Shown piece by piece: positions 1,243-41,751 of a stretch of 43,269 nt of DNA. Each line of letters begins with the position of its first letter. Position 1 is the stretch's first letter. The DNA is from a virus. The stretch is taken from UHGV virus genome UHGV-0027971; one strand, written 5' to 3'. The position numbers and the translations under genes were made by a program. The notes under the pieces are model-generated. The model had not been told where the DNA came from. It made no database searches and saw only the letters and a list, made by a program, of their open reading frames with translations.

Positions 1243-2433
1243 CTACTTACTAGTCCATTCATCAATCATATTCGCCCAATCTTGTAGCATCTCAGCCCTC
1301 TGCTCACGATATTCTGCCTTGTTATAAACAGCTCGTACCCCTTTTTGTTCATGGGCAAGGCTCTTCTCAATCCAGTCAGTATTGTACCCGGCCTCATGTA
1401 GCAAGGTGCTGGCTGTACGCCGTAAGTCATGGGGACCAAACTTAGGCAACAACTCCCCTTCTTTCTGAGCCAGGCGATACGTCAGTGTCAAAACCCGGTT
1501 TAAAGTAGCGCTACTCATTGGCGCATCGGAATCGTACCGCGAAGGAAGGATAAAATCAGAGCTACCGGCAAAGGTTTTGAGAGCAATCATAATATCCATT
1601 GCCTGTCTGGAAAGAAAAACCAAATGTGGATTACGTCGTTTCATCCTTTCCTTTGGTATCGTCCATAATGCCTCACTAAAATTGATCTCGTTCCAGGTTG
1701 CGTTAGTAAGCTCACTTTTACGTACCATCGTTAACAGCAAAAGTTTAACCGCTGCTCTGATTGATGGCGTCGTTCCTACCCGTTCCATGTACCGATACAT
1801 CAGACCAATTTCAACTGGCGTCAATGCCCTGTCTCGAGGCTCAAATTTCGCTATGCTTGCAGGCCGTACCAGATCAGCAGGATTCTCCACCTTCTGACCG
1901 CGCTCAATAGCCCAGCGATAGACTTGCAATACAATCTCTCTAGCGTGTACAGCTGTCGCTGGTGCCCCTCTCTCGACAATGTTATCGGTTAATGCGCGTA
2001 AGTCCTCATGTGTAATCTCACTAAGTTTCTGCTGGGCAAATTTTGACTTCAACTCCCTTTGATATACCGAACGCCGCATATCACGCGTCGATTCAGCCAT
2101 TTGATAACCGCGTAACCATTTCTCAGTCCACGCACCAAAAGTCTCCGCATCTTTAATACGCGCTTTATCTCTGGCTTTTTCCCTCGCAGGCGATATTCCA
2201 CTGGCAACCATTTTTTTGGCTTCATTGAGCCGTTCACGCGCTTCTGCAAGCGTGATCCCTCCAACACCATAGCGGCCAAAAGTAACAGTCTCCTGTCTTC
2301 CGTTTATTGAATAGTTATAACGAAATGAAATAGTTCCAGCCGGAGTGACCGCAACATACAGACCATCACGGTCATTAACTTTATAGAGTTTCTCCTTCGG
2401 CTTAAGGTGATGCAGCCTGGTGTCAGTCAACAT
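1243..2433 (-). CDS. int: tyrosine recombinase / integrase, P4-type (element 1)
   Basis: 396 aa; N-terminal MLTDTRLHHLKP..LYKVNDRDGLYV and C-terminal HDLRRTASTLLHEAGY..WIEKSLAH..GVRAVYNKAEY motifs typical of P4/CP4-57-like integrases; paralog of 41752..43002. Confidence 0.9.
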   Translation of the reverse strand: MLTDTRLHHLKPKEKLYKVNDRDGLYVAVTPAGTISFRYNYSINGRQETVTFGRYGVGGITLAEARERLNEAKKMVASGISPAREKARDKARIKDAETFGAWTEKWLRGYQMAESTRDMRRSVYQRELKSKFAQQKLSEITHEDLRALTDNIVERGAPATAVHAREIVLQVYRWAIERGQKVENPADLVRPASIAKFEPRDRALTPVEIGLMYRYMERVGTTPSIRAAVKLLLLTMVRKSELTNATWNEINFSEALWTIPKERMKRRNPHLVFLSRQAMDIMIALKTFAGSSDFILPSRYDSDAPMSSATLNRVLTLTYRLAQKEGELLPKFGPHDLRRTASTLLHEAGYNTDWIEKSLAHEQKGVRAVYNKAEYREQRAEMLQDWANMIDEWTSK

Positions 2434-4669: not shown

Positions 4670-4762
4670 CGTTTACTATGCATGATGAACCTCCTTAGCT
4701 TGGTAGGCTCATCATACACAATAAACCAAATATGACTAAACGGTAATATTTAAGTTTATCCA

Positions 4763-4948
4763 CTATTCATCTTTGGTAACAGAGGCGCTATCAAACCAGT
4801 CTGTCGCTACCTCATCATCAACCGAATAAGTTATAACGTATTTCACTGGAGTATCTTTCATTACCGTATACCCGATTACCTCTCCGGCAATGCCTGGGAT
4901 ACCATTAACAGATACCGTAACCATTTGACCAATATTTATAATGCTCAT
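4763..4948 (-). CDS. hypothetical small protein downstream of the tailspike
   Basis: 61-aa ORF abutting the tailspike stop (ATGA overlap). Confidence 0.4.
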   Translation of the reverse strand: MSIINIGQMVTVSVNGIPGIAGEVIGYTVMKDTPVKYVITYSVDDEVATDWFDSASVTKDE

Positions 4949-7245
4949 GACGTCACCGTAAAATTAAATAATAATGAATCGGTAGAAGAAGCCAGCCATA
5001 AAGACTGAGTTTTATTTTTCGGAGCTTCAATCAAATCCATTGATGCTTTTGCAGAGCAATAAAACCCGTAATCTCCTGTTGCAGCTATTGAAATCTCAAC
5101 CAGATGATTAGCATTTATTGCAGCTGTGATAGAGGGAGTTGACGTAGTTTCAGCATCCCAGTTATCCCATTCGTGAGATAGTATCCTTGCGCCGGTAGCC
5201 CAGTTGTCATTGACAGTACCATTTGAGATCAGCACCACAGCCCTGATGCGAGAATATTTTTGCGTCGTCCTTGTTCTGAGGAACGCTGTAACATTAACAA
5301 TTGCAGCGTTAAATCCACCGACAACACCGAAAGTCCAGAGAGTTTTACTACTGTTGACCCCGGCACCGGATGCGACAGGAGGAAAATCTGTGGTTATTTT
5401 CCCAATACTCCCTGTATTAATGATTCTTGGGGCATATTTAAATTCGGCAGGGACCACGGTATTAGCCCCAAGAACAAATGCCATGGATGATGCCCTTAAT
5501 TTGTTGCCTGTTACGTTAGGATGGGTATCATCATTCATCCACCCTTTTGATACGGCGTTTTCATAAGTACCTAGGGTCTGCCTGTCATCAAAATAGTAAT
5601 AGCCATTATTCAAAGCAAAATTTCTCCTGGCTATCCTGTAACTCTCTACGGCACTAGCATATTTGGGGTTAGTCGTCTTACTTGTTTCCCCTGGTTCAAC
5701 TATTAGCGCAACCGACGATGATGGTTTTATCATATTGGTATATGTTATCAAATCCGCCTTAAACTGCTCAACAGTTCTCCCTTGCCCCATATCATTAGTT
5801 CCCGCATTAATAACAACTAAAGCAGGGTTTAATGCAGCTTTCCATTTCGAAATAAAAACAGAGTCCTGCGATACAAACTCATCAAGTCGCCTGCCGCCAC
5901 GTGCAATTGTTGCTGTTCTTATACCTCTTGGGTTTGGTGTATATATAAAATCAAGTGCAAAAATAACTACATTACCGGTAATTTCTGAAAGTGTGATGCT
6001 GGAGGCATTTGTCGCATCTCTGAATACAGAAATAACGCCAAGATCCAAATCGGCGTTACTGTTAACGCTAGTCACAGTGCCGCCTGCCGTTATATTAAAG
6101 CTACCACCACCTGATTGTTTTAAATAATACAAATTACACTTATCCCATGGCAATTTGGGATCAGCGCCAGCTTGCTCAGTACCACTTGCTGAAGGCCATT
6201 GAATACCTCTACCAGCAGGAGCATATTTTGCTGGGGTAGCATTCATCGGTAAATCTCGTAAACTGGTGAATGTTCCTAAAGCATAAAATGCCTGATCACC
6301 TTCTATCTGAAAGGCCGCTTGATCAAAAGCATAAAATCCAGGTCCACCATAATCAAATGATGAATGCAGAAGTATTTTCAGGTATCTAACATAATTGGTG
6401 TTACCTGCCCCCTCATTAAGTGAATCAATGCCAAACTGAATCAGGCCTCCGGTTTGTAAAAGATAAGCAAGTGGATTATTTTTAACATATGAATTTACAT
6501 CCATTCGATCTAGTGTTGCTCCTACCGTTGTTTCATGAAACCCTGACAAGTTAGCGCCTGTAGGTTTTGCAAGTTGGATCAACACATCAGAAGCGCTACC
6601 AGGAATGGCAGGGACAGGATTTGGTTCACCATAATCGTTGAAAGTGAAAACTGTATTTTTCCTTACGTCCACAGAAGGAAGAAAAGATATTTCATCTTCA
6701 GGTACTCTCACCGTCCTTTTAAACAAATTCTCAGAATGCTGATTATTACTTGAATCTCCGGCATCTACATAATTCTTTGTTGCAGCATCCTGTGCCTGTG
6801 ACGGGTCACGCAGATTACGAATGCGGTTGTTGAGTGCGTCGTAATAGCTCGCGATGAACGACGGCTTACGCAGCGCCAGGCGGAGAAAGCTGAAGCACTG
6901 CTGGATAAGCATGGTCAGCTTGTCGAATGCATCCTCATGCACCTCTGCGAAAAATTTCCCCTGGTTACGCAGATCAGTCTCCTGGGTAACAGGCAAGTCA
7001 CGTGAGATAGAGATTTGCCATCCGTTGGCCAGAGGTGACATCAACACAACGCTCCCACCTGAATAGCTTCCCGCCCCGGTAACTGAGTAATCGGTATCTA
7101 AAGTCAGAACTGTAATATTTTCGTTAAGGTCAGCGACCTGGACAGTGAGATCTGACTTCTTGAAGATGCGAAACGTGTACGGGAAAGATGTGGTAACGCC
7201 GTTCCCTGTGTAGTCGTTATGGTCGACTTCGGTTGAGACCGTCAT
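4945..7245 (-). CDS. tailspike/tail fibre protein with SGNH (GDSL-like) hydrolase domain
   Basis: 766 aa; N-terminus MTVSTEVDHNDYTGNGVTTSFPYTFRIFKKSDLTV typical of podovirus tail-fibre head-binding domains; C-terminal part has SGNH-like blocks (VVINAGTNDMG, NDDTHPN). Confidence 0.8.
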   Translation of the reverse strand: MTVSTEVDHNDYTGNGVTTSFPYTFRIFKKSDLTVQVADLNENITVLTLDTDYSVTGAGSYSGGSVVLMSPLANGWQISISRDLPVTQETDLRNQGKFFAEVHEDAFDKLTMLIQQCFSFLRLALRKPSFIASYYDALNNRIRNLRDPSQAQDAATKNYVDAGDSSNNQHSENLFKRTVRVPEDEISFLPSVDVRKNTVFTFNDYGEPNPVPAIPGSASDVLIQLAKPTGANLSGFHETTVGATLDRMDVNSYVKNNPLAYLLQTGGLIQFGIDSLNEGAGNTNYVRYLKILLHSSFDYGGPGFYAFDQAAFQIEGDQAFYALGTFTSLRDLPMNATPAKYAPAGRGIQWPSASGTEQAGADPKLPWDKCNLYYLKQSGGGSFNITAGGTVTSVNSNADLDLGVISVFRDATNASSITLSEITGNVVIFALDFIYTPNPRGIRTATIARGGRRLDEFVSQDSVFISKWKAALNPALVVINAGTNDMGQGRTVEQFKADLITYTNMIKPSSSVALIVEPGETSKTTNPKYASAVESYRIARRNFALNNGYYYFDDRQTLGTYENAVSKGWMNDDTHPNVTGNKLRASSMAFVLGANTVVPAEFKYAPRIINTGSIGKITTDFPPVASGAGVNSSKTLWTFGVVGGFNAAIVNVTAFLRTRTTQKYSRIRAVVLISNGTVNDNWATGARILSHEWDNWDAETTSTPSITAAINANHLVEISIAATGDYGFYCSAKASMDLIEAPKNKTQSLWLASSTDSLLFNFTVTS

Positions 7246-7330
7246 GTTAAATCTCCAGATAGTCGCAGCACCCGTTGCGCCGCATATCCGGTTATTTTAT
7301 TACCTGAAAAACCACATATGGATAGATAGA

Positions 7331-7346
7331 CTGTGAATTCGAACAG
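7331..7346 (+). promoter_or_regulatory. candidate second SOS-box-like site (CTGTGAATTCGAACAG)
   Basis: CTGT-N8-ACAG spacing, but the spacer is not the usual AT-rich sequence. Confidence 0.3.
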
Positions 7347-7401
7347 ATATTACCTTTCAGGTAATTTTCAAAACGTGCTGGATAGCAAATAAATTATTTG
7401 A

Positions 7402-7421
7402 TACTGTATAAATATACAGTT
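7402..7421 (+). promoter_or_regulatory. LexA (SOS) box TACTGTATAAATATACAGTT overlapping a promoter (-35 TTGATA at 7398..7403)
   Basis: Near-consensus CTGT-N8-ACAG with AT-rich spacer, 20 bp upstream of the 7441 start. Confidence 0.75.
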
Positions 7422-7440
7422 ATTGCATGGAGAAGATAAG

Positions 7441-7698
7441 ATGCAGCAGTATCACTATCCACTGGAAGAGGGATTTACCGAAAGGATTCACACGCCGGGA
7501 GGCGTCAGGTCACTGGTGGAGGGATCGCACTTGATGAAATTACTCCGGGATCTCGATAAGGATGGATTTAATGTCGATGGCCCACTTGCCGAACTGACTG
7601 CACTGATTAACTACGTCACCAGCTCACAGATGTCTATGCGGGATCTGCAAACACATCTCGACTATTGTGCCGAACAATTACGAAAACAAACCCGGTAA
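7441..7698 (+). CDS. SOS-regulated small protein, stand-alone homolog of the shared antirepressor C-terminal module (Tum-like role inferred)
   Basis: 85 aa from ATG 7441 (RBS GGAGAAG; track start 7423 is a forced TTG). Aligns with the C-termini of the proteins at 9345, 11074 and 41064 (IH.P.GV..L.E.S.LM.LL...DG..V.G..AELT...Y......RD.QTH..Y). Confidence 0.6.
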   Translation: MQQYHYPLEEGFTERIHTPGGVRSLVEGSHLMKLLRDLDKDGFNVDGPLAELTALINYVTSSQMSMRDLQTHLDYCAEQLRKQTR

Positions 7699-7705
7699 AT
7701 TTAAA

Positions 7706-7721
7706 GGCCGCAAGAGCGGCC
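7706..7721. terminator. hairpin terminator between convergent genes
   Basis: GGCCGC-aaga-GCGGCC followed by a T-rich tract; between the 7441..7698 (+) and 7721..8449 (-) 3' ends. Confidence 0.55.
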
Positions 7722-8449
7722 TATCGTTTCGCTTTGTGCTCATCCCAGCACGTTTTGCACCATGCCATTAAACCATCCGCATTTTGATTATTAGGGTAAA
7801 AGCTGGTTCGTTTTCTGCGGACATTACAAATTGGGCACCACTTCATATGGCGTGTATTCTTTGGGCCATCGAGACACCTTGCACACCACTTAGTCAATCC
7901 ATCTGGATTTTTTGACGATTTCCTGAATTTTTCATATGGAAGGTTTATTCTGCATCGCAAGCACTGCTTGCTACCACTTGAAACTCTGTTAGCTGATTCT
8001 TCTTTTGGCGGCGATACAGAAGGTATTCTTGCTGGCTCTGATACTGCCTGAGGTGCTTTTTTAGATGACTGAGACGATGTGTCATCACCAGGGAATCTTC
8101 CATGATATGCCGGACGCGTTGACACTCCAGGTGGAAGCTCTGCTGTAAATGGCTTTGGCTGAATCAGTTGCCTCTCTTTTGCTAACTCCTGCTGTTTATA
8201 ATATGTCTGGATTACCGCACTATCATAAGCAGGAGGTGCGGAAATATTAGGCGCATTACCTCCAGTTTTTTGAAACTGAGTAGAGGTGTGTTCTATCACC
8301 TGTGTACGATTAATCGTTATCTCCCCATCTTCGGTCTTTATCGTTTTGTTATGATTTACGACCGTACGATCAGAGATCTTAGTCTTGTTCTGGTTGATAA
8401 CGTAAATAATCACCGCAACCACACCAACAACTATCCAGAAAACTTCCAT
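7721..8449 (-). CDS. hypothetical membrane-anchored protein with two C-terminal zinc-ribbon-like motifs
   Basis: 242 aa; N-terminal hydrophobic helix, low-complexity S/P-rich linker, then CLRC..(x20)..WCARC and CPIC..(x20)..WCKTC. Confidence 0.5.
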   Translation of the reverse strand: MEVFWIVVGVVAVIIYVINQNKTKISDRTVVNHNKTIKTEDGEITINRTQVIEHTSTQFQKTGGNAPNISAPPAYDSAVIQTYYKQQELAKERQLIQPKPFTAELPPGVSTRPAYHGRFPGDDTSSQSSKKAPQAVSEPARIPSVSPPKEESANRVSSGSKQCLRCRINLPYEKFRKSSKNPDGLTKWCARCLDGPKNTRHMKWCPICNVRRKRTSFYPNNQNADGLMAWCKTCWDEHKAKR

Positions 8450-8604
8450 TGCTTTTCCTCACAATAACATTACCTTAAAGGTAATATCTTGCTTTCAGGT
8501 GATCAAGCATTAAACTCCATCAACCAAATACGGTTGATTTTGATATTTATTCTCGCTTATCATTACCTTTGCGGTAAATTTACATCGCACTCCTCTTGTG
8601 CCAT

Positions 8605-8690
8605 AGTAATCAGGCACTGGCAAAATCCAGTGCCGGGATTGGCGTCCCGGATTACTAGTAGGCGCATACCACGCCAGACGTGGTTTTTTT
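8605..8690 (+). ncRNA. candidate structured small RNA or leader element ending in a rho-independent terminator
   Basis: Outer stem TAGTAATC/GATTACTA enclosing hairpins GGCACTGG-caaaat-CCAGTGCC and CCGGGA-ttggcg-TCCCGG, then terminator CCACG-ccaga-CGTGG + T7 (8669..8690). Function unknown. Confidence 0.3.
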
Positions 8691-8845
8691 ATGCGTATAG
8701 CACAGTCATATCCGAATTATGGTGGGCTGGGCAGGGGCACCGAAAGGTGCGCCGGTACCTACTAGGCCGGTACGCCAACCTTGTCCAGTTCACCACCAGC
8801 AATTGGCGTTGCGGTGGTAGGTAACTTACTAGTAGAGGTATCGCT

Positions 8846-9352
8846 ATGCCAGGCCAAAAAATCTCAAACGACGATCTGTATTGGTTAATTTCTAATTCTC
8901 CACTCCTTCTTATGCTAAGGCAAGAAAGTGCACCACTGGTCAGTGAATTGATTAGCTGTAGAAATAGAATGTGGGATGAAGGGGCAGATTTAGATACCAA
9001 TTTGTTTGATCATCTTATGCAACTAGCAGTCGATAACAAGGCAAAACTACGCTCTGAATACAACGCTTATCCAGAAATAGCAAAATACCTTAACGCTGAA
9101 ATACTTGGTGGACCAGGTCAACCAGACCTAAAAACAAAAGATGGTTACCCTGTTGAGGTGAAGGTAGATACTTTTTCTCCTTCAGCATTAAAACAATTAT
9201 TAAGGTATATGGATGCTTCTGGCGCAGATTTTGGTTTTGCTTGTGCAAAAACTCTTTCTGTAAAACTCCCTGAAAACATAAAGTTCATCCAGTTAGATTA
9301 TAAAGATAATTGCTATTTCGTCGTGAAAGATGGAGGCAATGAAAATGCGTAA
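8846..9352 (+). CDS. hypothetical protein (168 aa), possible PD-(D/E)xK-like motif
   Basis: ORF with RBS GAGG; sequence KDGYPVEVKVD resembles a D..E.K nuclease core but this is a weak by-eye guess; AT-rich. Confidence 0.5.
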   Translation: MPGQKISNDDLYWLISNSPLLLMLRQESAPLVSELISCRNRMWDEGADLDTNLFDHLMQLAVDNKAKLRSEYNAYPEIAKYLNAEILGGPGQPDLKTKDGYPVEVKVDTFSPSALKQLLRYMDASGADFGFACAKTLSVKLPENIKFIQLDYKDNCYFVVKDGGNENA

Positions 9353-10064
9353 TATAGCTATTGATAAGTTGCCGATAACAACTCATTGCAACATCCCTGT
9401 AATGACTACAGAAATGCTTGCTGATTTGTATGACACAGAACCCAAACTGATTCGTCAAAACTATCAACGAAATGCAGATCGATTCATTGAGGGAAAACAT
9501 TGTTTCAAGCTGATAGGCGAAGAATTACGAGCATTTAAGAACGAGTCCTCTCAAAGAGGTTTGCTTAATATTGCACCAAAAGTAAGTCATCTTTTCTTAT
9601 GGACCGCTCGCGGTGCAGCACGACATGCGAAAATTCTTGAGACTGAAAAAGCGTGGGAGGTCTTCGAAAAACTGGAAGATTGCTACTTCGACAGAAAACC
9701 CGCAAATGTCAGTGGAGATGTTCGTCTCTCAGGTGGAGCTGATTTATCAAAGGCCACTCAGGTAATTGAAAAATTCATGCCCGCCATTATGGAGGCGATC
9801 AAGCTGGAAGACAAAAAAGAATACAGCGCCCCACTGAAGCCCGGCTACCGCAGCCTGATTCACTCGCCGTCGGGTGTTCTCGGCCTGACGGAGCACTCAC
9901 TGCTGATGAATCTGCTGAATCAGTTGCAGGAAGACGGGCACGACGTATCGGGCGCGGCGGCGGAACTGACCACCATGTTCTGCTACATCGTCGGTGTGAG
10001 TAAATGCCTGCGTGATATCCAGACGCACGCGGAGTACATCAACGACAAGGCAGGGTTCTTCTGA
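9345..10064 (+). CDS. antirepressor-like protein (ORF6N-type N-terminal domain + shared C-terminal module)
   Basis: Start taken at ATG 9345, 8 nt after GGAGG (track start 9330); C-terminal ~95 aa near-identical to those of 11074..12012 and 41064..41720. Confidence 0.7.
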   Translation: MRNIAIDKLPITTHCNIPVMTTEMLADLYDTEPKLIRQNYQRNADRFIEGKHCFKLIGEELRAFKNESSQRGLLNIAPKVSHLFLWTARGAARHAKILETEKAWEVFEKLEDCYFDRKPANVSGDVRLSGGADLSKATQVIEKFMPAIMEAIKLEDKKEYSAPLKPGYRSLIHSPSGVLGLTEHSLLMNLLNQLQEDGHDVSGAAAELTTMFCYIVGVSKCLRDIQTHAEYINDKAGFF

Positions 10065-10184
10065 CAGAACGGCGGCACAGGGATGTGCAAAACGGAACTA
10101 TCGTGACATGTCACAGGCCGCTTTCGCGGCCTTGTTTTTAACGAATGCCACCGCCGCCTGGGCGGGAATCCGCAGACACAAAAA

Positions 10185-10201
10185 AGCCCGCGGCGCGGGC
10201 T
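10185..10201 (-). terminator. rho-independent terminator downstream of the 10209..10844 gene
   Basis: Hairpin AGCCCGC-ggc-GCGGGCT with A-run 10177..10185 on plus (U-run on minus); sequence resembles the terminator at 2660..2692. Confidence 0.5.
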
Positions 10202-10208
10202 TAAAGAA

Positions 10209-10844
10209 CTATTTTATTGGCAGCTTATGCTTTGAAATTATGGCCAATCTGTTTTGGAAGTTTTCCGCATCACCCCACAACCAGGTTTCACCTTTCTCAA
10301 GTTCTTCCTCGTTATTCATCTCTATAAGTTCGCATGTCATCATGTCGTAACCATAGAGATGGAGGCCAAGTTCCAGTGCGTCATACATGCGAGCCTGCCA
10401 GAACGACATGCCTTCATGAGTCTGGTTGCGATCAGACACGATGATATCGTACCGTTCCAAGAGGTAGTTCATGAAGATGATGCCAGCGAAATCATGAAGC
10501 ACAGCACGATGCTTAGGCTTCTGGGTTCTCCATACCAATATCTGCGTGACAGGACGGCAGTTAAGATAGCTGTCAGGCTGGATAATGACACGATTGTAAT
10601 ACACTACCTCTTCGGTGAGGTCATTTATCAATGACAGTTCAAAGTGCGCCTGTGGAATCTCGCCTTTCTTACGATCGTCTACACGGACAACGCGGTATCC
10701 AGGAGCCAGAGAAACGCCTTTGACATCAGATGTGACATCGTTGCCGTTCACTAACTCTGAATACAGAGCGCGGTTGTCTGGAGTTTCGTTCAGATGAGCG
10801 AAAACCTCAGTTACCTTTGCCGGATTCAGCAGTTGTTGTGGCAT
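10209..10844 (-). CDS. hypothetical protein (211 aa), accessory gene
   Basis: Clean ORF with its own terminator and two upstream TTACC-N5-GGTAA-type sites (10886..10900, 10986..11000); no family recognised. Confidence 0.5.
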   Translation of the reverse strand: MPQQLLNPAKVTEVFAHLNETPDNRALYSELVNGNDVTSDVKGVSLAPGYRVVRVDDRKKGEIPQAHFELSLINDLTEEVVYYNRVIIQPDSYLNCRPVTQILVWRTQKPKHRAVLHDFAGIIFMNYLLERYDIIVSDRNQTHEGMSFWQARMYDALELGLHLYGYDMMTCELIEMNNEEELEKGETWLWGDAENFQNRLAIISKHKLPIK

Positions 10845-11073
10845 ACATCACCTCATAATATATAGATGCTTCTTTAAGCGGGATTTACCATTAGGGTAAA
10901 TGAACTATCCGAATGTTAAACGCCTTCGTACTCGTCAAATTTTCTCATGTGGGCTCCTCCTGTATCGGTGCCTAATCGCTATGGATCACCCGTGAGGTAA
11001 TAGTACGCTATTCACCCCCAGTCTGCAATCTGTACAGAATTATTTAAAGGCACATCCCTGTGCCGCCGTTCTG

Positions 11074-12012
11074 TCAGAAGAATCCTGCCTTGTCGTTGAT
11101 GTACTCCGCGTGGGTCTGGATATCACGCAGGCATTTGCTCACACCAACGATGTAGCAGAACATGGTGGTCAGCTCCGCCGCCGCGCCCGATACATCGTGC
11201 CCGTCTTCCTGCAACTGGTTCAGCAAATTCATCAGCAGTGAGTTCTCCGTCAGGCCGAGAACACCAGACGGCGAGTGAATCAGGCTGCGGTAGCCGGGCT
11301 TCAGCGGATAACCATAACATTTTGTCTGTGTTTTAATTGCCTCACGAAGCGCATCTAACATCTTGACTGCCACTTCATCATTCTCTGATGCAGATCCAGC
11401 AGGGAGATACTCCCCTTCAAGCGGAACCCGAGCAACAAGAGACAACGCTTCGGCGAATTGATCTTCATCAATTTCTTTGTACGAACAGCCAAAATGAGAT
11501 TTCAGTGACGACCACATGGTGATCATCGCCTTAGCCTGTTTTTCTTTTGGCAGAGACTGACCGCGACTCATGACGAGTTGTTTAATGGCTTCCTGCTGTT
11601 CAGTGGTGATTTTACCCGGCAACGCCTTTTTAGCTTTGCGTGGGTTAACTACATGGCCTTTAGTCCAGTAATCGTAGAGCACATCGTCACACTCTTCCTG
11701 ATACTGGATTACCTTGTCGCGGATTTCAGGGCGTACTTTGTTTGGACTGATGCTGTTCAACCAAGCTGCCAATTTTCGTAAAGCCATACAAATCATGGCT
11801 TGCACCCCACCGGCAGAAGGTATGGTGATTTCCACCATACCCTTCGAGAAGCGTTGAGAAATCTTCTTATGTTGAGATTTCCAGTCTAGCCCCATTCCCT
11901 CAACGATAGGTTTCATTGGGGTATACGGTTCACCGTTGTGATTGACAACATAAAGCTCTGCGCCGTGGAATGGCACGTTGATAGTAGATACCGCTGTTGC
12001 TATACTCGTCAT
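11074..12012 (-). CDS. ant: antirepressor (AntA-type N-terminal domain + shared C-terminal module)
   Basis: 312 aa; N-terminal region resembles AntA/P22 Ant-type domains; directly downstream of the arc-like gene as in P22 immI. Confidence 0.8.
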   Translation of the reverse strand: MTSIATAVSTINVPFHGAELYVVNHNGEPYTPMKPIVEGMGLDWKSQHKKISQRFSKGMVEITIPSAGGVQAMICMALRKLAAWLNSISPNKVRPEIRDKVIQYQEECDDVLYDYWTKGHVVNPRKAKKALPGKITTEQQEAIKQLVMSRGQSLPKEKQAKAMITMWSSLKSHFGCSYKEIDEDQFAEALSLVARVPLEGEYLPAGSASENDEVAVKMLDALREAIKTQTKCYGYPLKPGYRSLIHSPSGVLGLTENSLLMNLLNQLQEDGHDVSGAAAELTTMFCYIVGVSKCLRDIQTHAEYINDKAGFF

Positions 12013-12087
12013 GTCGTTAATTCCTATACGTAGTTTTACGATACTGAAGCCCTGACGGTCTGGCCACCGTTGGGCTTCGCTGTTTTA
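12013..12087 (+). ncRNA. candidate sar-like antisense RNA opposite the ant ribosome-binding region
   Basis: Plus-strand promoter inside the ant 5' end (-35 TTGATA 11978..11983, 17-bp spacer, -10 TATACT 12001..12006) and plus-strand terminator in the arc-ant gap (GAAGCCC..ACGGT-ctggcc-ACCGT..GGGCTTC + GCTGTTTTA, 12046..12087); predicted ~75 nt. Confidence 0.45.
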
Positions 12088-12252
12088 TGCCACGCTATTC
12101 TTCTCACCAGTGAGTCCATACACTTTCCTCAGCTGATAGATAATCTCTGTATTGAACTTTCGGCATTCTTTTTCGCCATTTCTTTCAATAGCTAACTTCA
12201 CATCGTCCGGAAAACGAACTCGTCGTTGACACATCTCTTTTGCTTTTTGCAT
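12085..12252 (-). CDS. arc: Arc-like ribbon-helix-helix repressor
   Basis: 55 aa from ATG 12252 with strong RBS AAGGAG (track start 12288 is a forced TTG); size and beta-strand region (RRVRFPDDVKLAIERNGE) fit P22 Arc. Confidence 0.7.
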   Translation of the reverse strand: MQKAKEMCQRRVRFPDDVKLAIERNGEKECRKFNTEIIYQLRKVYGLTGEKNSVA

Positions 12253-12266
12253 TTCATATCTCCTTA

Positions 12267-12281
12267 GCCCCACGGTGGGGC
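12267..12281. promoter_or_regulatory. Mnt-operator-like palindrome GCCCCACGGTGGGGC upstream of the arc-like gene
   Basis: Perfect 15-bp palindrome with CCACGGTGG core as I recall for the P22 mnt operator; sits just upstream of the arc RBS. Confidence 0.6.
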
Positions 12282-12372
12282 AAAACAATTGTCACACCGT
12301 GCGTCATTGATGTCAAGCACACGGTGAGGCATACTTCAATCATTGCAAGTAACTCAATATTTGGTGAAGAAC

Positions 12373-12804
12373 ATGAGCAGAGAAGATCCACAACTAAGGA
12401 TCAGACTTCCCGTTGAAGTAAAAGAAAAAATAGAAATTTCTGCAAAAGCCAATAAGCGATCAATGAACGCTGAAATAGTACAACGTCTTGACACCAGCTT
12501 TCTGAAAGATATTCATGAAGATGACGTAATTTCTGCTTATGAAGCAAAAATTATTGCAAACAATGCACGGCATGAAATATCAAATATTATTTTCAAAAGA
12601 ACCTTTAATGAAATTAATAAGAAAATAACACTTGGACATACAAGTTTTTATATAAACCTTAATGACCTTGAACTGGAATCACTTGCAGATAATGATTACC
12701 AGATCATCTTTGAAAAAACATTTAATAAGCTCAATGAACTAGGTTACATCATCTGTGAAAACTCATGGGATGCAGATGGTTTTGGAATTGAAATACCTGA
12801 ATAG
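12373..12804 (+). CDS. mnt: Mnt-like ribbon-helix-helix repressor with extended C-terminal region
   Basis: N-terminus MSREDPQLRIRLPVEVKEKIEISAKANKRSMNAEIVQRL matches my recollection of P22 Mnt (MARDDPHFNFRMPMEVREKLKFRAEANGRSMNSELLQIV); divergent from arc-ant; start taken at ATG 12373. Confidence 0.75.
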   Translation: MSREDPQLRIRLPVEVKEKIEISAKANKRSMNAEIVQRLDTSFLKDIHEDDVISAYEAKIIANNARHEISNIIFKRTFNEINKKITLGHTSFYINLNDLELESLADNDYQIIFEKTFNKLNELGYIICENSWDADGFGIEIPE

Positions 12805-12846
12805 GAAGAACAAAAGGCGTGTACATATTACACGTCTTTAATACAA

Positions 12847-13458
12847 TTGAAAAACGCCACATTACTGATGTATGTTACAACAAGGAGCGATATTTTGAAA
12901 ACCATATCTATATTAAAGGTTGCATTAGGCGTCGCTATTATTTTGACTCTCTCAATATTGTTTTATTTTTACCACAAAAAAAATGCTATTGCTCTTGATG
13001 GTCACGCGGCAAACTCATTTTTCTCAGAGTACATAGTGCCGCTATCAGGAAGCGGTATAACAAATAAATATACTGACTATGACATCAAATATGGAATTGA
13101 TGATGGGGAGACTATTGTATTACATGTAATCATTAAAAACCTAATGACAGTAAATAAAAATACAGACTTCAACGATAAAAATACAATACATCACAACAAC
13201 AGCAAAACATTAATTTCTTATAGTAGCAACATCTATACGGATAAATACCTAAAATACATCTCAGAAGATACAATAAAAGCAACCAGCGAAAAGTTAAAAA
13301 ACATATATTGTGCATCCGGCAGTTTTCACAAATTATCGCCGCAGGAGCGTTTATTCTACGAAGCAAGAAAACAACGTAAGTCAATAATATTACATTATTA
13401 TGCTGATTCAGGGGAGTCACTCATATTTAATATTGGGGTTTCCCCTGAATCATGCTAA
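12847..13458 (+). CDS. hypothetical membrane-anchored protein (203 aa), AT-rich accessory gene
   Basis: N-terminal hydrophobic helix (ILKVALGVAIILTLSILFYFY), N/K/Y-rich body; position next to mnt corresponds to sieA in P22-like maps (positional analogy only). Confidence 0.45.
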   Translation: MKNATLLMYVTTRSDILKTISILKVALGVAIILTLSILFYFYHKKNAIALDGHAANSFFSEYIVPLSGSGITNKYTDYDIKYGIDDGETIVLHVIIKNLMTVNKNTDFNDKNTIHHNNSKTLISYSSNIYTDKYLKYISEDTIKATSEKLKNIYCASGSFHKLSPQERLFYEARKQRKSIILHYYADSGESLIFNIGVSPESC

Positions 13459-13469
13459 AGGCGTTTAAC

Positions 13470-16400: not shown

Positions 16401-16484
16401 ATCAAACCCAGTTTGTTCCGGCAAAACATTACCTGACGGGATCAGTCCGTTATTAAGATCTTCAGCTTGTGCATAAACTGGCAT
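13470..16484 (-). CDS. internal virion/ejection protein (T7 gp16-position, 1004 aa)
   Basis: Very large ORF ending the virion operon after the gp14/gp15-like genes. Confidence 0.7.
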   Translation of the reverse strand: MPVYAQAEDLNNGLIPSGNVLPEQTGFDVALPEGANPEPLPPEPSVWGAAMRQNNILSGFFRPARQFEPVEGYNPYADKNELHGYEYWGAKFADSRSPEETAWIKQQIDDENEDRRLLSDAGVVGTLASIAAGMDPVTVASMFIPGAQGGALARIGSQIAIGAAGTALSEVVLNNQQITRSWGESAAHVAAGAMMSGVFASAGVALSPSVRAAATREVADALDNMSITSVTDRAAASLSDGGSVGAMKIDTATLDDLTPVSGGWVGKAAWKAGSYLTPLTRLMESPSKTVRKTTLELAENNFTLKGNERGIETPVAVETRTRGWQREEAAVVVGNKQAYAKYKADGGDMSFDSFRQQVGNAMRSGDVHANPVVQETAQAMRTVLNRVKVEMQKLGLLPPDEELKALGQASYFPRIYKVGKIISERDKFRRILVDWWSRGNKTLDPEDAEIAADIVINKITGAKVPQDFVSVFSVKAAGSTKERTLNVPDSLIRDYLESDVNYVLQRHIREAAAEIELTRTFGKRTMTERLQLIEDEYDSLLREVPEKIKAKYDESVANLKARYESNGEVVPQGKLDSLMRKYEKELRKEQSRLSKSRANDLRDITALRDRLVGTYGMPDDPSSFFVRAGAFLRDVNFTTKLGGMTVSAIPDLARGVMVNGFRNTMKGYASQISQSPAFKASKEDMLKMGIGLEAVLHSRSRAIGDLVDSSSRTTAVEAGMERITDAFGKLTLMDRFNDINKSMNGMLTSDGILSGAFSARRMAKLGINDNMAARIRSEFEKHGEVIDGWHIGNFDKWDDQYVAGVFQSAVLKDVNNTIITPGIGDTPLWASTPMGRTIFQFKSFTTASYNRALLGGLQEGTAQFYYGTAFQIALGSLVYALKEASKGKNVDWSPEKLVLEGIDRSGILGPLMEYNNMAEKATGGAVGLGALFGTGTQSRYASRGFVGSLFGPSFGLADSIIDVTAGVLNGDAGDRIAHNVRTLIPGNNLFWIAPLINQVDPVMR

Positions 16485-19201
16485 TATTTAGATCCCCACG
16501 AAAAGTAATCTTTAAATTTGTCCATACGTTCGTTATGCAGGCGCTGATACTGCTCATCCAGAGCGCGATGCTTGTCTTTGAAGTTTCGTATAGCCTGTCC
16601 ACGCATAATTTCTTCCTGCTCGTACTGCTCCCGTTCCTGCTGCATTTTCTTATAAGGTTCCCAATCTTCTAGTGATGGTTCCCAACGCATAGGACGCCCA
16701 TGTTTGTTATAAAACGGCTGGACCCGATCGATGCCATTTTCATCCTTAGTTCTTACCATAATGGCGTAATCACCATTACGGGGTGTTAACACGTCAGGGG
16801 TTATGAATAATTCTCCATTAATACGACTCTCAGGGGTTTTTGTCTCAACTACAGGAGCATTACCTGACGTGATCCCAAGCAACGTCGGACTGGTTGTTAT
16901 AATCTCTTTGCGCTCACCGTACATCAGCCGTTCTTTTTCAGCTTTCCACTGCGCCGCCTGCCAGCCTGACGGCCCATATTGATAAAGCGCCTCCGGTGCA
17001 TATTTCATAAACTGCGCTTCTCCGTTAACCTCGCTGATACTCCAAGTGCGGGCTATCTGCTGGTTGGTCATTTGCTTCGCTACGTCAGCGTTACCACCAG
17101 CAACGCGGTAGTTAATGTCATACATCGTCTGATAGTCATTACGGAATCTAGCTGCTTCCGGCGTCTGGTCATCCGCAGACGGATCCCAACGGAACCACTG
17201 CGCCATATTGCTGACAGCAGAATTCATCGCCTTGCTGCGATCATTTTTGTACTCTTTTGAACTCTGCGTTGATGCCAATTGAGCTTTAAGTGCATCGGTC
17301 TGGTTGTACGTAAGGTTCTGCGCCTGCTCGATAGCCGCATCAGCAGACATGCCAGAATCAGTTAGTTGCTTAACAGTCAGATAAAAACCCTGCATATCCT
17401 TCGGCATATTTCCAATAGATGCATTGTCTGTTTCATATAACCGACTAAACACTTCCGCCGCATTTTTAACCACTTCCTGATTGCTGGATCGGGATACTGC
17501 TGAAAGCTGCGTGATGACCTGCGAAGGCATTATGCCAGTCTGAGCCACAAGCCGAACAACCCCATCATGAGTGGAGACATCATTAATACGAAAGTTCTGC
17601 GCCATTTCTGTGTAATCAGCAGCTTTCTGCATTGACTTGTTGCTTGGGTCTAATTTTTCACCTATTGTCAGCGCCTCATTGAATCTGCGTGAATCCCGTT
17701 GCGCCTGAATTGCTTCATTTGATCTCTGAAGCAATGCAGACAATTTTCCGTAAGCATCGAGTTTTAACGCATAGTGAGGATCGTTAACCTCAGGCTTCAC
17801 TTTCTGCATTTCTTCTTGCTGCTGAGAAGGAGGCAAATACTGAATTGCCTGGAATATTCTCGCGTTATCAATCGCTATATCCAGTTGATTGATTATTTTA
17901 TCTGCGTTTTTTCCATACCCCCTGATGATGGTCTCCTGAGCCGGTATATAATCTGGAACCTCACCGTTATATAGCTGGGCCATGGTGTTATTAATAGCTG
18001 GCTCAAGCTGTTCTAATATTAACTTCCTTTGCTTTTCTATCTGACTATTAGCAAGGTTATCTATTTGATAAATAGTCAGTGGATCCATTCCAGTTTTATT
18101 TTTTCTATATCGGGAAAGCCACCCTTGTGTTTCTGATGGAAGATTTCGGATAAATTCTTCTTCTGATATTTCACCTTTACGTGGATCACCGACTTTGGCG
18201 ATCAGTTTATCCACGTTACCCATCCCCCAGTTATATGCTGCTCCGGTCAATATTTCTGAGCCGTACTTACCATACAGTTGATTTACATAGTCACTGGCAA
18301 GCATTTCATGCTGTTGTTCGTCCGTAGGGTTGTATTCAACGCCACGTTTGGCCGCCAGTTCTTTCCCTGTGCCCGGCATTAACTGGTATTTCCCCTGGGC
18401 CCTCTCTCCAGAAGATGTTTTCGGTCCTTCAAGAATACTACCATCAGGATTAAAATGACGATCACCTGATTCAACAAGGCGTATGGCACGCATGTCCATG
18501 CCTCCAGAATCATTTTTCTGAAACTGACCATTTAACCATCCTTCCGGATTAGCAGCGGCATAATTCTTCGCCCGCATTTCTGTGGCACTGCGATCATCAC
18601 TTTCTATTTCTTCCAGAATGCGTTCTTGTGACCATCCCCTGGCTGCTCCATATCTGGCAATGGCTACCATTCTGGAATTTCTGGCTAAAGTGGCAGTTTG
18701 CGGGTCATTCCAGGCATCCGCTTCATTTTGTATCCATAATTTTCTCGTTGCCTGATATTGCTCATCTTCATAGGCATTTGTCTGCCCTATCTCATGTCTG
18801 AGAACTCCAGTACTGAACTGAATTTTCTGTGTTCTGGCTTGTTGCAAAAACATATTTCTTGCTGCTTCATCAGTCAATGAAGCAGCTATTTCTTCCACAT
18901 CCTGATCAAATCCAGATATGTACTCTTGCCCCTTACCAATCGCATTTTTGCCTTGTTGTGCATAAAAACCGGTTTGAGGGTTATAAAGACGTTCATTGCT
19001 GCGCTGATTAAGCTGAAGGATGGCATCCTGAGACAATGCAACATTCGCTTTCTGCCTGGCTTCACCATATGCCACCGCATACTGATCTGCGACATTCGCC
19101 AGCACCTGACCTGCTTGAGGAACATCGAAGGTTTGAAAACCACCGGTTTGCACACCACGACTTTGCACCTGGCGTCCGGATGTAGTAGGAACAACAGGCA
19201 T
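16484..19201 (-). CDS. internal virion/ejection protein with lytic transglycosylase (SLT) domain
   Basis: 905 aa; SLT-like motifs LVESGDR, GKYQLMPGTG, AAYNWGMGNV. Confidence 0.8.
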   Translation of the reverse strand: MPVVPTTSGRQVQSRGVQTGGFQTFDVPQAGQVLANVADQYAVAYGEARQKANVALSQDAILQLNQRSNERLYNPQTGFYAQQGKNAIGKGQEYISGFDQDVEEIAASLTDEAARNMFLQQARTQKIQFSTGVLRHEIGQTNAYEDEQYQATRKLWIQNEADAWNDPQTATLARNSRMVAIARYGAARGWSQERILEEIESDDRSATEMRAKNYAAANPEGWLNGQFQKNDSGGMDMRAIRLVESGDRHFNPDGSILEGPKTSSGERAQGKYQLMPGTGKELAAKRGVEYNPTDEQQHEMLASDYVNQLYGKYGSEILTGAAYNWGMGNVDKLIAKVGDPRKGEISEEEFIRNLPSETQGWLSRYRKNKTGMDPLTIYQIDNLANSQIEKQRKLILEQLEPAINNTMAQLYNGEVPDYIPAQETIIRGYGKNADKIINQLDIAIDNARIFQAIQYLPPSQQQEEMQKVKPEVNDPHYALKLDAYGKLSALLQRSNEAIQAQRDSRRFNEALTIGEKLDPSNKSMQKAADYTEMAQNFRINDVSTHDGVVRLVAQTGIMPSQVITQLSAVSRSSNQEVVKNAAEVFSRLYETDNASIGNMPKDMQGFYLTVKQLTDSGMSADAAIEQAQNLTYNQTDALKAQLASTQSSKEYKNDRSKAMNSAVSNMAQWFRWDPSADDQTPEAARFRNDYQTMYDINYRVAGGNADVAKQMTNQQIARTWSISEVNGEAQFMKYAPEALYQYGPSGWQAAQWKAEKERLMYGERKEIITTSPTLLGITSGNAPVVETKTPESRINGELFITPDVLTPRNGDYAIMVRTKDENGIDRVQPFYNKHGRPMRWEPSLEDWEPYKKMQQEREQYEQEEIMRGQAIRNFKDKHRALDEQYQRLHNERMDKFKDYFSWGSK

Positions 19202-33791: not shown

Positions 33792-33908
33792 GATTTACCC
33801 CTTAGGTAATTAAAAACCACATAAGACATGAAATCAATAGATGCTAGAACATTTTATTACCCATCAGGTAATCATGTGGACGTAAAAAAATGCGCTATCG
33901 CGCTGGTA

Positions 33909-36848: not shown

Positions 36849-36861
36849 ATTGCCAGATAGA

Positions 36862-36938
36862 TTACCTTACGGGTAATTTTTTTAACTCATATCTATTGAC
36901 ACCAAACCAAATAAGCATAATTATTACCTCAACGGTAA
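36862..36938 (+). promoter_or_regulatory. pL-like promoter flanked by two operator sites
   Basis: -35 TTGACA (36895..36900), AT-rich -10 region near 36917..36923; TTACCTTACGGGTAA (36862..36876) upstream and TTACCTCAACGGTAA (36924..36938) just downstream. Confidence 0.55.
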
Positions 36939-41063: not shown

Positions 41064-41720
41064 ATGACCAGTCAACTCATCCCCGTATTCAACGGCACTA
41101 TATCTAACGAAACAGCCCTACTTTGCAATGCCCGCGATCTGCACGCTTTTTTAGGTGTTAAAAAGGTGTTTGCAGCATGGATTACAAATCGAATTTCAGA
41201 ATACGAATTCATTGAAAATCAAGACTATATTTTGCTTTCCAATTTGGGAAAGCAAACATCTGGTAGAGGCGGCCACAACCGCAAAGAGTACCACCTCACC
41301 CTCGATACAGCCAAAGAACTAGCAATGGTCGAGCGTAACGAAAAAGGTCGTCAGGTACGACGCTACTTCATTGAATGCGAGAAACGTTTAAGACAACAAG
41401 AAACAAAAGTGGAGAAGGTCTTGTCAGGCTTCATGCCCGCCATTATGGAGGCGATCAAGCTGGAAGACAAAAAAGAATACAGCGCCCCACTGAAGCCCGG
41501 CTACCGCAGTCTGATTCATTCTCCGTCTGGTGTTCTCGGCCTGACGGAGAACTCACTGCTGATGAATCTGCTGAACCAGTTACAGGAAGACGGGCACGAC
41601 GTATCGGGCGCGGCGGCGGAGCTGACCACCATGTTCTGCTACATCGTCGGTGTGAGCAAATGCCTGCGTGATATCCAGACGCACGCGGAGTACATCAACG
41701 ACAAGGCAGGGTTCTTCTGA
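41064..41720 (+). CDS. antirepressor-like protein (Bro-N/AntA-like N-terminal domain + shared C-terminal module)
   Basis: Start ATG 41064 after strong SD AAGGAGG (track start 41034); C-terminal ~95 aa near-identical to those of 9345..10064 and 11074..12012. Confidence 0.75.
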
Positions 41721-41751
41721 CGGCGGCGGCACAGGGATGTGCCGGGCAAAA

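Follow-up and report, generated by a model that had tools for sequence, protein, structure and literature searches.

A probable receptor-deacetylating tailspike with an Ape1-like SGNH esterase module in an epsilon15-type Escherichia coli prophage

Does the tailspike encoded at positions 4945-7245 (minus strand) of virus genome UHGV-0027971 cut the backbone of a host surface polysaccharide, or does it remove acetyl groups from it? A preliminary description of the whole stretch of 43,269 nucleotides (hereafter the window) had placed an SGNH/GDSL-type esterase-like domain behind a podovirus tailspike adaptor and proposed deacetylation of the receptor in place of glycosidic cleavage. The locus is a single intact open reading frame (ORF) of 766 codons, which opens with an ATG at 7245 preceded by GGAG and closes with a TGA stop at 4945-4947, and it is the tailspike, or receptor-binding protein (RBP), gene of a Uetakevirus-type E. 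coli prophage resembling epsilon15, phiV10 and TL-2011b. The analysis presented here makes it probable that this epsilon15-type tailspike carries an SGNH esterase as its receptor module and deacetylates O-antigen or capsule with it.

The two motifs on which the preliminary description relied, GTND and DDTHPN (residues 572-577 for the latter), are genuine, and both the Pfam score and the conservation within the family argue against chance occurrences. However, the SGNH fold extends beyond the C-terminal third of the protein to which it had been assigned: it already begins at about residue 265, and the last 174 residues constitute a separate domain. Blocks I and II had been overlooked; they lie 176 residues apart and include the putative nucleophile and one of the oxyanion residues, respectively (Table 1). 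The proposed domain search recovered the Pfam SGNH hydrolase profile PF13472 (Lipase_GDSL_2) over residues 440-583 with 45.5 bits against a curated gathering cut-off of 32.9, and Lipase_GDSL scored 24.6 bits against a cut-off of 23.6. Since the PF13472 match begins at profile position 39, block I falls outside it. The alignment shows the complete triad of Ser275, Asp572 and His575 together with both oxyanion residues, Gly451 and Asn484, and the objection foreseen in the preliminary description, namely an alignment lacking the catalytic triad, thereby falls away.

The catalytic residues are also conserved well outside the close relatives. When residues 251-766 were searched with HMMER against 1.84 billion cluster representatives (50%-identity clusters), 487 relatives were found at an expectation value (E) ≤ 1e-3 and 152 at E ≤ 1e-10, with alignments that mostly begin just ahead of block I. 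Counting among the non-gap residues of a family alignment of 160 rows, Asp274 and Ser275 are conserved in 139 of the 141 aligned relatives, Gly451 in 152/155, Asn484 in 152/153, Asp572 in 144/152 and His575 in 151/152, so that the catalytic and oxyanion residues are kept in 95-99% of about 150 distant cluster representatives. The neighbouring Asp573 is variable, and the conserved aspartate is therefore the canonical one of the DxxH motif (Asp572). The features that define the SGNH/GDSL family are found together: the block I Ser at the start of the first helix, the block II Gly, the block III Asn, the block V DxxH, a curated profile score and an alpha/beta/alpha fold. A second database search, with the 43-sequence family alignment, returned the same close relatives plus one weak match and did not deepen the family. 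Furthermore, the esterase module is under purifying selection: in comparisons with the Klebsiella-type homologues, synonymous sites are saturated (proportion of synonymous differences, pS, 0.59-0.86) against a proportion of nonsynonymous differences (pN) of 0.04-0.23. The most constrained parts are the block I segment and, for two of the three relatives (L003 and L008, pN ~0.04), the C-terminal domain; the pN of the latter is 0.16 against the relative L006, and that of the block I segment stays at 0.04-0.09 across relatives. By pN, variability is highest in the insert and in the second half of the SGNH fold.

Structure prediction, another of the checks that had been proposed, points in the same direction. 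An AlphaFold2 model of residues 241-766, built from a 43-sequence alignment (mean predicted local distance difference test, pLDDT, 85.4), has an alpha/beta core in which the strand 267-272 runs into a helix starting at Ser275, and it matches solved carbohydrate O-acetylesterases. In a Foldseek search of the PDB, more than 100 SGNH structures are matched at E ≤ 1e-3, and the top matches are the Ape1 peptidoglycan O-acetylesterases of Neisseria meningitidis (4K3U) and Campylobacter jejuni (8GKD/8GLD), with E of 6e-16 to 8e-15 and a two-domain superposition whose target-normalised template-modelling (TM) score is 0.72-0.78 over ~355 columns. Two-domain carbohydrate esterases (CE2, acetyl-xylan and acetyl-mannan esterases) rank behind them. 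Phages of Proteus, Klebsiella, Rhodococcus, Gordonia and Arthrobacter also have this fold, which a viral structure library shows in their tail fibres, minor tail proteins and 'hydrolases'. The C-terminal beta-sandwich of the model resembles tailspike C-terminal domains, and neither the Pfam search nor the model detected a beta-helix depolymerase or glycosidase domain in the tailspike.

The resemblance to Ape1 extends to the domain architecture and to the spacing of the catalytic residues. In the model as in Ape1, the SGNH esterase is bimodular, with a CBM35-like beta-sandwich between block I (Ser) and block II (Gly); the CBM35 domain of C. jejuni Ape1 (CjApe1) is set into the alpha/beta/alpha SGNH fold at the same place as the insert of the tailspike. 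The family profile also recovers CjApe1 at the sequence level (E 1.1e-9), in an alignment that takes in blocks II, III and V. The catalytic residues of CjApe1 are S73, G237, N270, D367 and H369, with G237 and N270 forming the oxyanion hole. The Ser-Gly spacing is 176 in the tailspike and 164 in CjApe1, the Gly-Asn spacing is 33 in both, and the Asn-His spacing is 91 and 99, respectively. While the stated CjApe1 triad S73-D367-H369 has a D-x-H arrangement, the tailspike and its family conserve the canonical D-x-x-H aspartate (D572). Moreover, Ape1 has a housekeeping role in the periplasm, with peptidoglycan as its substrate; it has neither a tail adaptor nor the C-terminal tailspike sandwich, and shares only 14-17% identity with the tailspike module. 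Based on the model, the module is described as having an Ape1-like bimodular architecture and is not classed as an Ape1 orthologue.

That the esterase sits on a virion tailspike is indicated by its N-terminal part, which the preliminary description had rightly called a typical podovirus tailspike adaptor. Residues 1-~240 share 67-79% identity with epsilon15-type tailspikes and match tail protein families with E down to 7e-144. Identity of the adaptor amounts to 73% with epsilon15 gp20 (over residues 1-239), 66% with the phiV10 tail fibre, 67% with the TL-2011b tailspike and 79% with the tailspike of the E. coli BE311 prophage. A PDB sequence search matched the first 127 residues to the tailspikes Dpo31/Dpo36 (E 9e-25) and residues 135-235 to the capsule depolymerases 9m4c/9m4d; the Pfam T7 tail-fibre N-terminal model gives a weak match, under its cut-off. 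From the homology of its adaptor, the tailspike is presumably trimeric. Protein similarity to epsilon15-type tailspikes stops at about residues 233-249, and similarity to the Klebsiella-type relatives, which have other N-termini, starts at about residue 226.

These data suggest how the tailspike may work. The conserved N-terminal ~240 residues would dock it to the tail, and the horizontally exchanged receptor module, made up of the SGNH esterase, the inserted CBM35-like sandwich and the C-terminal beta-sandwich, would face the host. An O-acetylated surface polysaccharide (O-antigen or capsule) could bind in a groove that the SGNH core forms with the inserted sandwich, where Ser275, activated by His575 and Asp572, would attack the acetyl ester, with Gly451 and Asn484 as the predicted oxyanion hole. 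Acetate would leave and the glycan backbone would stay intact. In line with the proposal made for G7C gp63.1, repeated cycles of binding and deacetylation might then provide a specific and reversible attachment that brings the virion closer to the outer membrane.

Since the triad is present and conserved, the model matches O-acetylesterases and no glycosidase domain is found, deacetylation instead of glycosidic cleavage is the best reading of this module, and deacetylation of O-antigen or capsule during adsorption appears to be its most likely function. The interpretation of the preliminary description, an esterase in place of a glycosidase, is in this respect supported by a complete conserved triad, a predicted O-acetylesterase fold and the lack of a beta-helix. 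Some points weigh against it. Biochemical data are confined to relatives no closer than ~30% identity, the nearest solved structure (Ape1) acts on peptidoglycan and not on O-antigen or capsule, and, as the module has no detectable sequence similarity to gp63.1, to the esterase 'petal' of epsilon15 gp20 or to the modules of BUCT711 and BE311, these precedents carry over only at the level of fold or superfamily.

Four other explanations are less likely. In some tail fibres, degenerate enzyme folds serve for binding alone, and the SGNH module could accordingly be a catalytically silent, lectin-like receptor-binding domain that hydrolyses nothing; we regard this as improbable, because all catalytic and oxyanion residues are nearly invariant in ~150 distant relatives, which would be unexpected if catalysis were dispensable, and because constraint within the module is strongest in the block I segment (pN 0.04). 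A combination of two activities, with a depolymerase site hidden in the C-terminal beta-sandwich or at the trimer interface besides the esterase, would have a counterpart in epsilon15 gp20, which joins an endorhamnosidase to an SGNH esterase, and the C-terminal domain does resemble depolymerase tailspike domains; set beside the searches that detected no glycosidase domain, such an arrangement seems very unlikely. Hardly more can be said for a lipase, a phospholipase or an enzyme deacylating lipopolysaccharide, acting on outer-membrane lipids and not on polysaccharide. The SGNH superfamily takes in TesA/lysophospholipase L1, the profile also matches TesA-type thioesterases (E 1e-7) and one weak relative is named lysophospholipase L1-like esterase. 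However, the TesA matches span blocks III-V only, whereas the matches over the whole module are carbohydrate esterases with carbohydrate-binding inserts (Ape1, CE2, acetyl-xylan/acetyl-mannan esterases), and acetyl groups of glycans are the target of those phage SGNH RBPs that have been characterised.

The likeness to Ape1 raises the case of a peptidoglycan de-O-acetylase that readies the cell wall for a phage lytic transglycosylase at genome injection. Ape1 is the best structural and profile match, and the window does encode a phage injection protein with an SLT domain (16484-19201), syntenic with TL-2011b gp37. Yet the domain sits on an external tailspike behind a tail adaptor, far from the periplasm, it is exchanged along with receptor-binding domains at the usual tailspike junction, and its identity to Ape1 is low. 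Furthermore, neither E. coli nor Klebsiella is known to carry O-acetyl groups on its own peptidoglycan. Given the external site and the host biology, O-acetyl-N-acetylmuramic acid (O-acetyl-MurNAc) of peptidoglycan is an unlikely substrate, and this explanation has, of the four, the slightest claim. Deacetylation of a surface polysaccharide by the tailspike is hence the reading retained in what follows.

The receptor module belongs to a mobile cassette. In blastn comparison with TL-2011b, DNA homology breaks at window 4759/4760 and picks up again at 6763, which delimits the exchanged segment to 4760-6762. The TL-2011b counterpart (L001, 3521-6570) has a different receptor-binding domain and an O-antigen O-acetyltransferase gene (oac), which is also annotated in phiV10. 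An Oac homologue is absent from the window (best tblastn E-value 0.76), and the exchange replaced the TL-2011b-type receptor domain and oac together. Close homologues of the receptor module are few: one E. coli protein is 99% identical, and the others, which come from Klebsiella-type prophages and include one from Klebsiella quasipneumoniae, are 72-79% identical with unrelated N-termini. They reside on a podovirus-like prophage with a T7-type terminase domain and on a siphovirus-like element with tape-measure and NlpC/P60 proteins. Among 5,426 complete E. coli genomes, none was matched by megablast beyond the N-terminal adaptor. The cassette, which also includes a 61-amino-acid (aa) ORF, thus occurs on three phage backbones, the hosts being E. 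coli and Klebsiella-like bacteria.

This small acidic ORF lies immediately downstream of the tailspike gene and overlaps its stop codon (Table 1). On each of the three backbones, the homologous RBP gene has such an ORF (59-61 aa, 53-80% identity) behind it, and the ORF is likewise under purifying selection (pS 0.53-0.78 against pN 0.08-0.30). It has no Pfam match, no PDB sequence match at E ≤ 10, no meaningful tblastn match in 50,697 phage records and only a weak PHROG match, to the function-less phrog_8618 (E 2.7e-4); no such companion was found downstream of the BUCT711, BE311 and S9a tailspike genes. The encoded protein could have a role such as that of an assembly chaperone, a distal subunit or an inhibitor. 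As the cassette occupies the site at which TL-2011b and phiV10 carry a receptor domain and oac, an arms race within the genus is one possibility: some members would acetylate the receptor to exclude superinfection, and the present prophage would carry an enzyme that erases this acetylation. Taken as a whole, the proposal of a two-gene exchange unit, with the 61-aa protein as a dedicated partner of the esterase and an arms race over receptor acetylation, is speculative and rather doubtful.

Table 1. Features of the tailspike locus and related elements in the window
Feature	Position in the window	Strand	Details
Tailspike gene	4945..7245	-	766 aa, intact; 99% identical E. coli protein P0001, NCBI name 'GDSL-type esterase/lipase family protein'
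Particle-binding N-terminal adaptor	6751..7245	-	Residues 1-165; epsilon15/phiV10/TL-2011b tailspike type; phrog_1640, E 7e-144
Neck/linker with module-exchange junction	6454..6750	-	Residues 166-264; junction (…GSASDVLIQLAKPTGANLSG…) at ~residues 217-236
SGNH fold, first part (beta1, block I, helices)	6295..6453	-	Residues 265-317; from model and conservation
CBM35-like beta-sandwich inserted between blocks I and II	5926..6294	-	Residues ~318-440 (~120 aa); all-beta in model
SGNH fold, second part (blocks II, III, V)	5470..5925	-	Residues 441-592; PF13472 and CjApe1 profile alignment
Linker, C-terminal beta-sandwich and tail	4948..5469	-	Residues 593-766; sandwich ~615-740; conserved low-confidence C-terminal tail; from model
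Block I, G272-I-D274-S275-L	6421-6423 (codon of nucleophile Ser275); 6424-6426 (codon of Asp274)	-	
Block II, G450-G451	5893-5898	-	
Block III, G482-T-N484-D485	5791-5802	-	
Block V, D572-D-T-H575	5530-5532 (codon of D572); 5521-5523 (codon of H575)	-	
61-aa acidic ORF	4763..4948	-	ATG overlaps tailspike stop (ATGA); translationally coupled
Palindrome CTGTGAATTCGAACAG	7331..7346		CTGT-N8-ACAG form; not conserved in related prophages
Perfect palindrome ATTACCTTTCAGGTAAT	7349..7365		Copy of dispersed ATTACC-N5-GGTAAT; largely conserved in relatives
Palindrome TACTGTATAAATATACAGTT	7402-7421		Strongest of the region; absent from the preliminary description
Perfect ATTACC-N5-GGTAAT sites	7349-7365, 8469-8485, 33856-33872, 36861-36877		
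Further ATTACC-N5-GGTAAT sites	8562, 10985, 28498, 31599, 31617, 33794, 36149, 36923		
Integrase	1243-2433		

The whole window corresponds to an epsilon15/phiV10/TL-2011b-like prophage. By megablast of bases 1-25000, Escherichia phage TL-2011b covers 71% at 95% identity and phiV10 covers 35% at ~92% identity. The gene order is that of TL-2011b: head and tail genes, injection proteins, an accessory island and the tailspike are followed by holins, endolysin and spanin. The position of the tailspike gene, upstream of the lysis cassette, is syntenic with that of the TL-2011b tailspike, with flanks of 95% DNA identity, and its G+C content is ~42-44% compared with 51-55% in the adjoining lysis genes. 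The separation of the gene from the other virion genes, as noted in the preliminary description, is due to the accessory island (~7441-13460), and this arrangement too is syntenic with TL-2011b. The island contains an Ant-like gene, ORF6N/Bro-type genes and Arc-like genes, among others. It also encodes a 242-aa protein (7721-8449, minus strand) that has a hydrophobic segment in its N-terminal part and Cys-rich repeats in its C-terminal part. The repeats are matched by PHROGs of the endonuclease VII, Lar-like and HNH zinc-finger types and, weakly, by Pfam Stc1; this protein is kept in related prophages (phrog_6762), and a terminator-like hairpin (7705-7722) lies between its gene and the tailspike gene. 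In addition, four segments of ~260-350 bp (9789-10088, 9831-10176, 10988-11307 and 41445-41743) share 92-98% identity each with one and the same piece of TL-2011b Bro/Ant-region DNA; the presence of several copies in both orientations indicates that anti-repressor or Bro-type gene modules recur within the prophage.

Two palindromes had been reported upstream of the tailspike gene, at 7331 and 7350, and both are real. They were confirmed by reading and by pattern search, an automated inverted-repeat search (seed 6, minimum length 12) having returned none in 7230-7450. The second is a copy of the 17-bp element ATTACC-N5-GGTAAT, which has 20 matches in the window at ≤2 mismatches for 1.38 expected, a number reached in 0/100 shuffles; being dispersed in this way, it is not specific to the tailspike gene. 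Many of these sites lie between ORFs, as judged from the ORF list, and several are paired. We take the half-site TATTACC to resemble the lambda operator half-site TATCACC, and the element may be the operator of the prophage repressor or of another phage regulator. A scan for sigma-70 promoters in the region upstream of the tailspike gene gave nothing above background.

The third palindrome of this region (7402-7421) is what we assume to be a near-consensus LexA/SOS box. It is situated 20 nt upstream of a divergent 85-aa ORF (7441-7698, plus strand), whose product is matched by phrog_450 and by the C-terminal part of Ant anti-repressors (phrog_1760); the full-length Ant at 11074-12012 has this domain too. 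The putative box is kept in TL-2011b and in two E. coli prophages and is slightly altered in Klebsiella phage BUCT711, which suggests that the 85-aa ORF is an SOS-controlled, small anti-repressor-like gene.

Esterase tailspikes are already established, SGNH RBPs are recognised as common in temperate enterobacterial phages, and a protein 99% identical to the present one is already annotated as a GDSL esterase; the feature is in itself ordinary and leaves the overall picture unchanged. Such tailspikes set the host range via polysaccharide acetylation rather than via the structure of the backbone, and acetylation-dependent host range bears on phage typing, phage therapy and superinfection exclusion by prophages. 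The locus described here offers a clean case of a cassette replacing a unit made of a receptor-binding domain and Oac.

Comparison with the characterised esterases delimits what is shared. The parallel with phage G7C drawn in the preliminary description holds in function, as both proteins would be SGNH esterases within an RBP, but not in sequence, where no homology is found and only a distant match at the level of the fold remains. G7C gp63.1, the mechanistic model for adsorption driven by deacetylation, deacetylates the O-antigen without cutting it; infection requires this activity, and host mutants deficient in acetylation resist the phage (PMC10743462). In gp63.1 (PDB 4QNL) as in the present tailspike, an SGNH esterase takes the place of a depolymerase in a virion receptor-binding protein, whereas G7C belongs to the N4-like phage family and uses another adaptor. 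Neither phmmer nor the profile retrieved 4QNL from the PDB, G7C-like phages were missing from the tblastn matches, and Foldseek placed 4QNL at rank 23 (E 1e-5, TM 0.15-0.23). Membership of a gp63.1-type family was rejected, nothing being shared beyond the generic SGNH fold.

Epsilon15 gp20 is closer by its homologous particle-binding domain and also bears an SGNH esterase. Besides a beta-helix endorhamnosidase, it has at its C-terminus an SGNH 'petal' that strips galactose of its O-acetyl groups, and the S787A or H1038A substitution abolishes this removal (bioRxiv 10.64898/2026.07.31.742079). On the other hand, gp20 has 1070 aa, possesses a beta-helix, and its small beta-barrel insert follows block II (Gly813). 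Homology of the two esterases was rejected for want of a sequence match, since tblastn with residues 251-766 gave no match in any epsilon15-group phage.

SGNH is among the commonest enzymatic domains of Klebsiella prophage RBPs, and two SGNH tail fibres of such prophages (164_08 and 174_38) hydrolyse p-nitrophenyl acetate (pNP-acetate) without depolymerase activity (PLoS Biol 2026, PMC13123978). Like the tailspike studied here, these fibres are RBPs of temperate phages with an SGNH module and no beta-helix. Furthermore, Klebsiella phage BUCT711 and the E. coli BE311 and WCHEC005784 prophages carry, at the same genome position and behind the same adaptor, tailspikes annotated as SGNH/GDSL. By BLASTP, the SGNH modules of BUCT711 and BE311 have no similarity to the module of the present tailspike, and homology to them was rejected on this ground. 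This adaptor has therefore received more than one SGNH module, and the tailspike of this epsilon15-type E. coli prophage adds to them a further, Ape1-like lineage.

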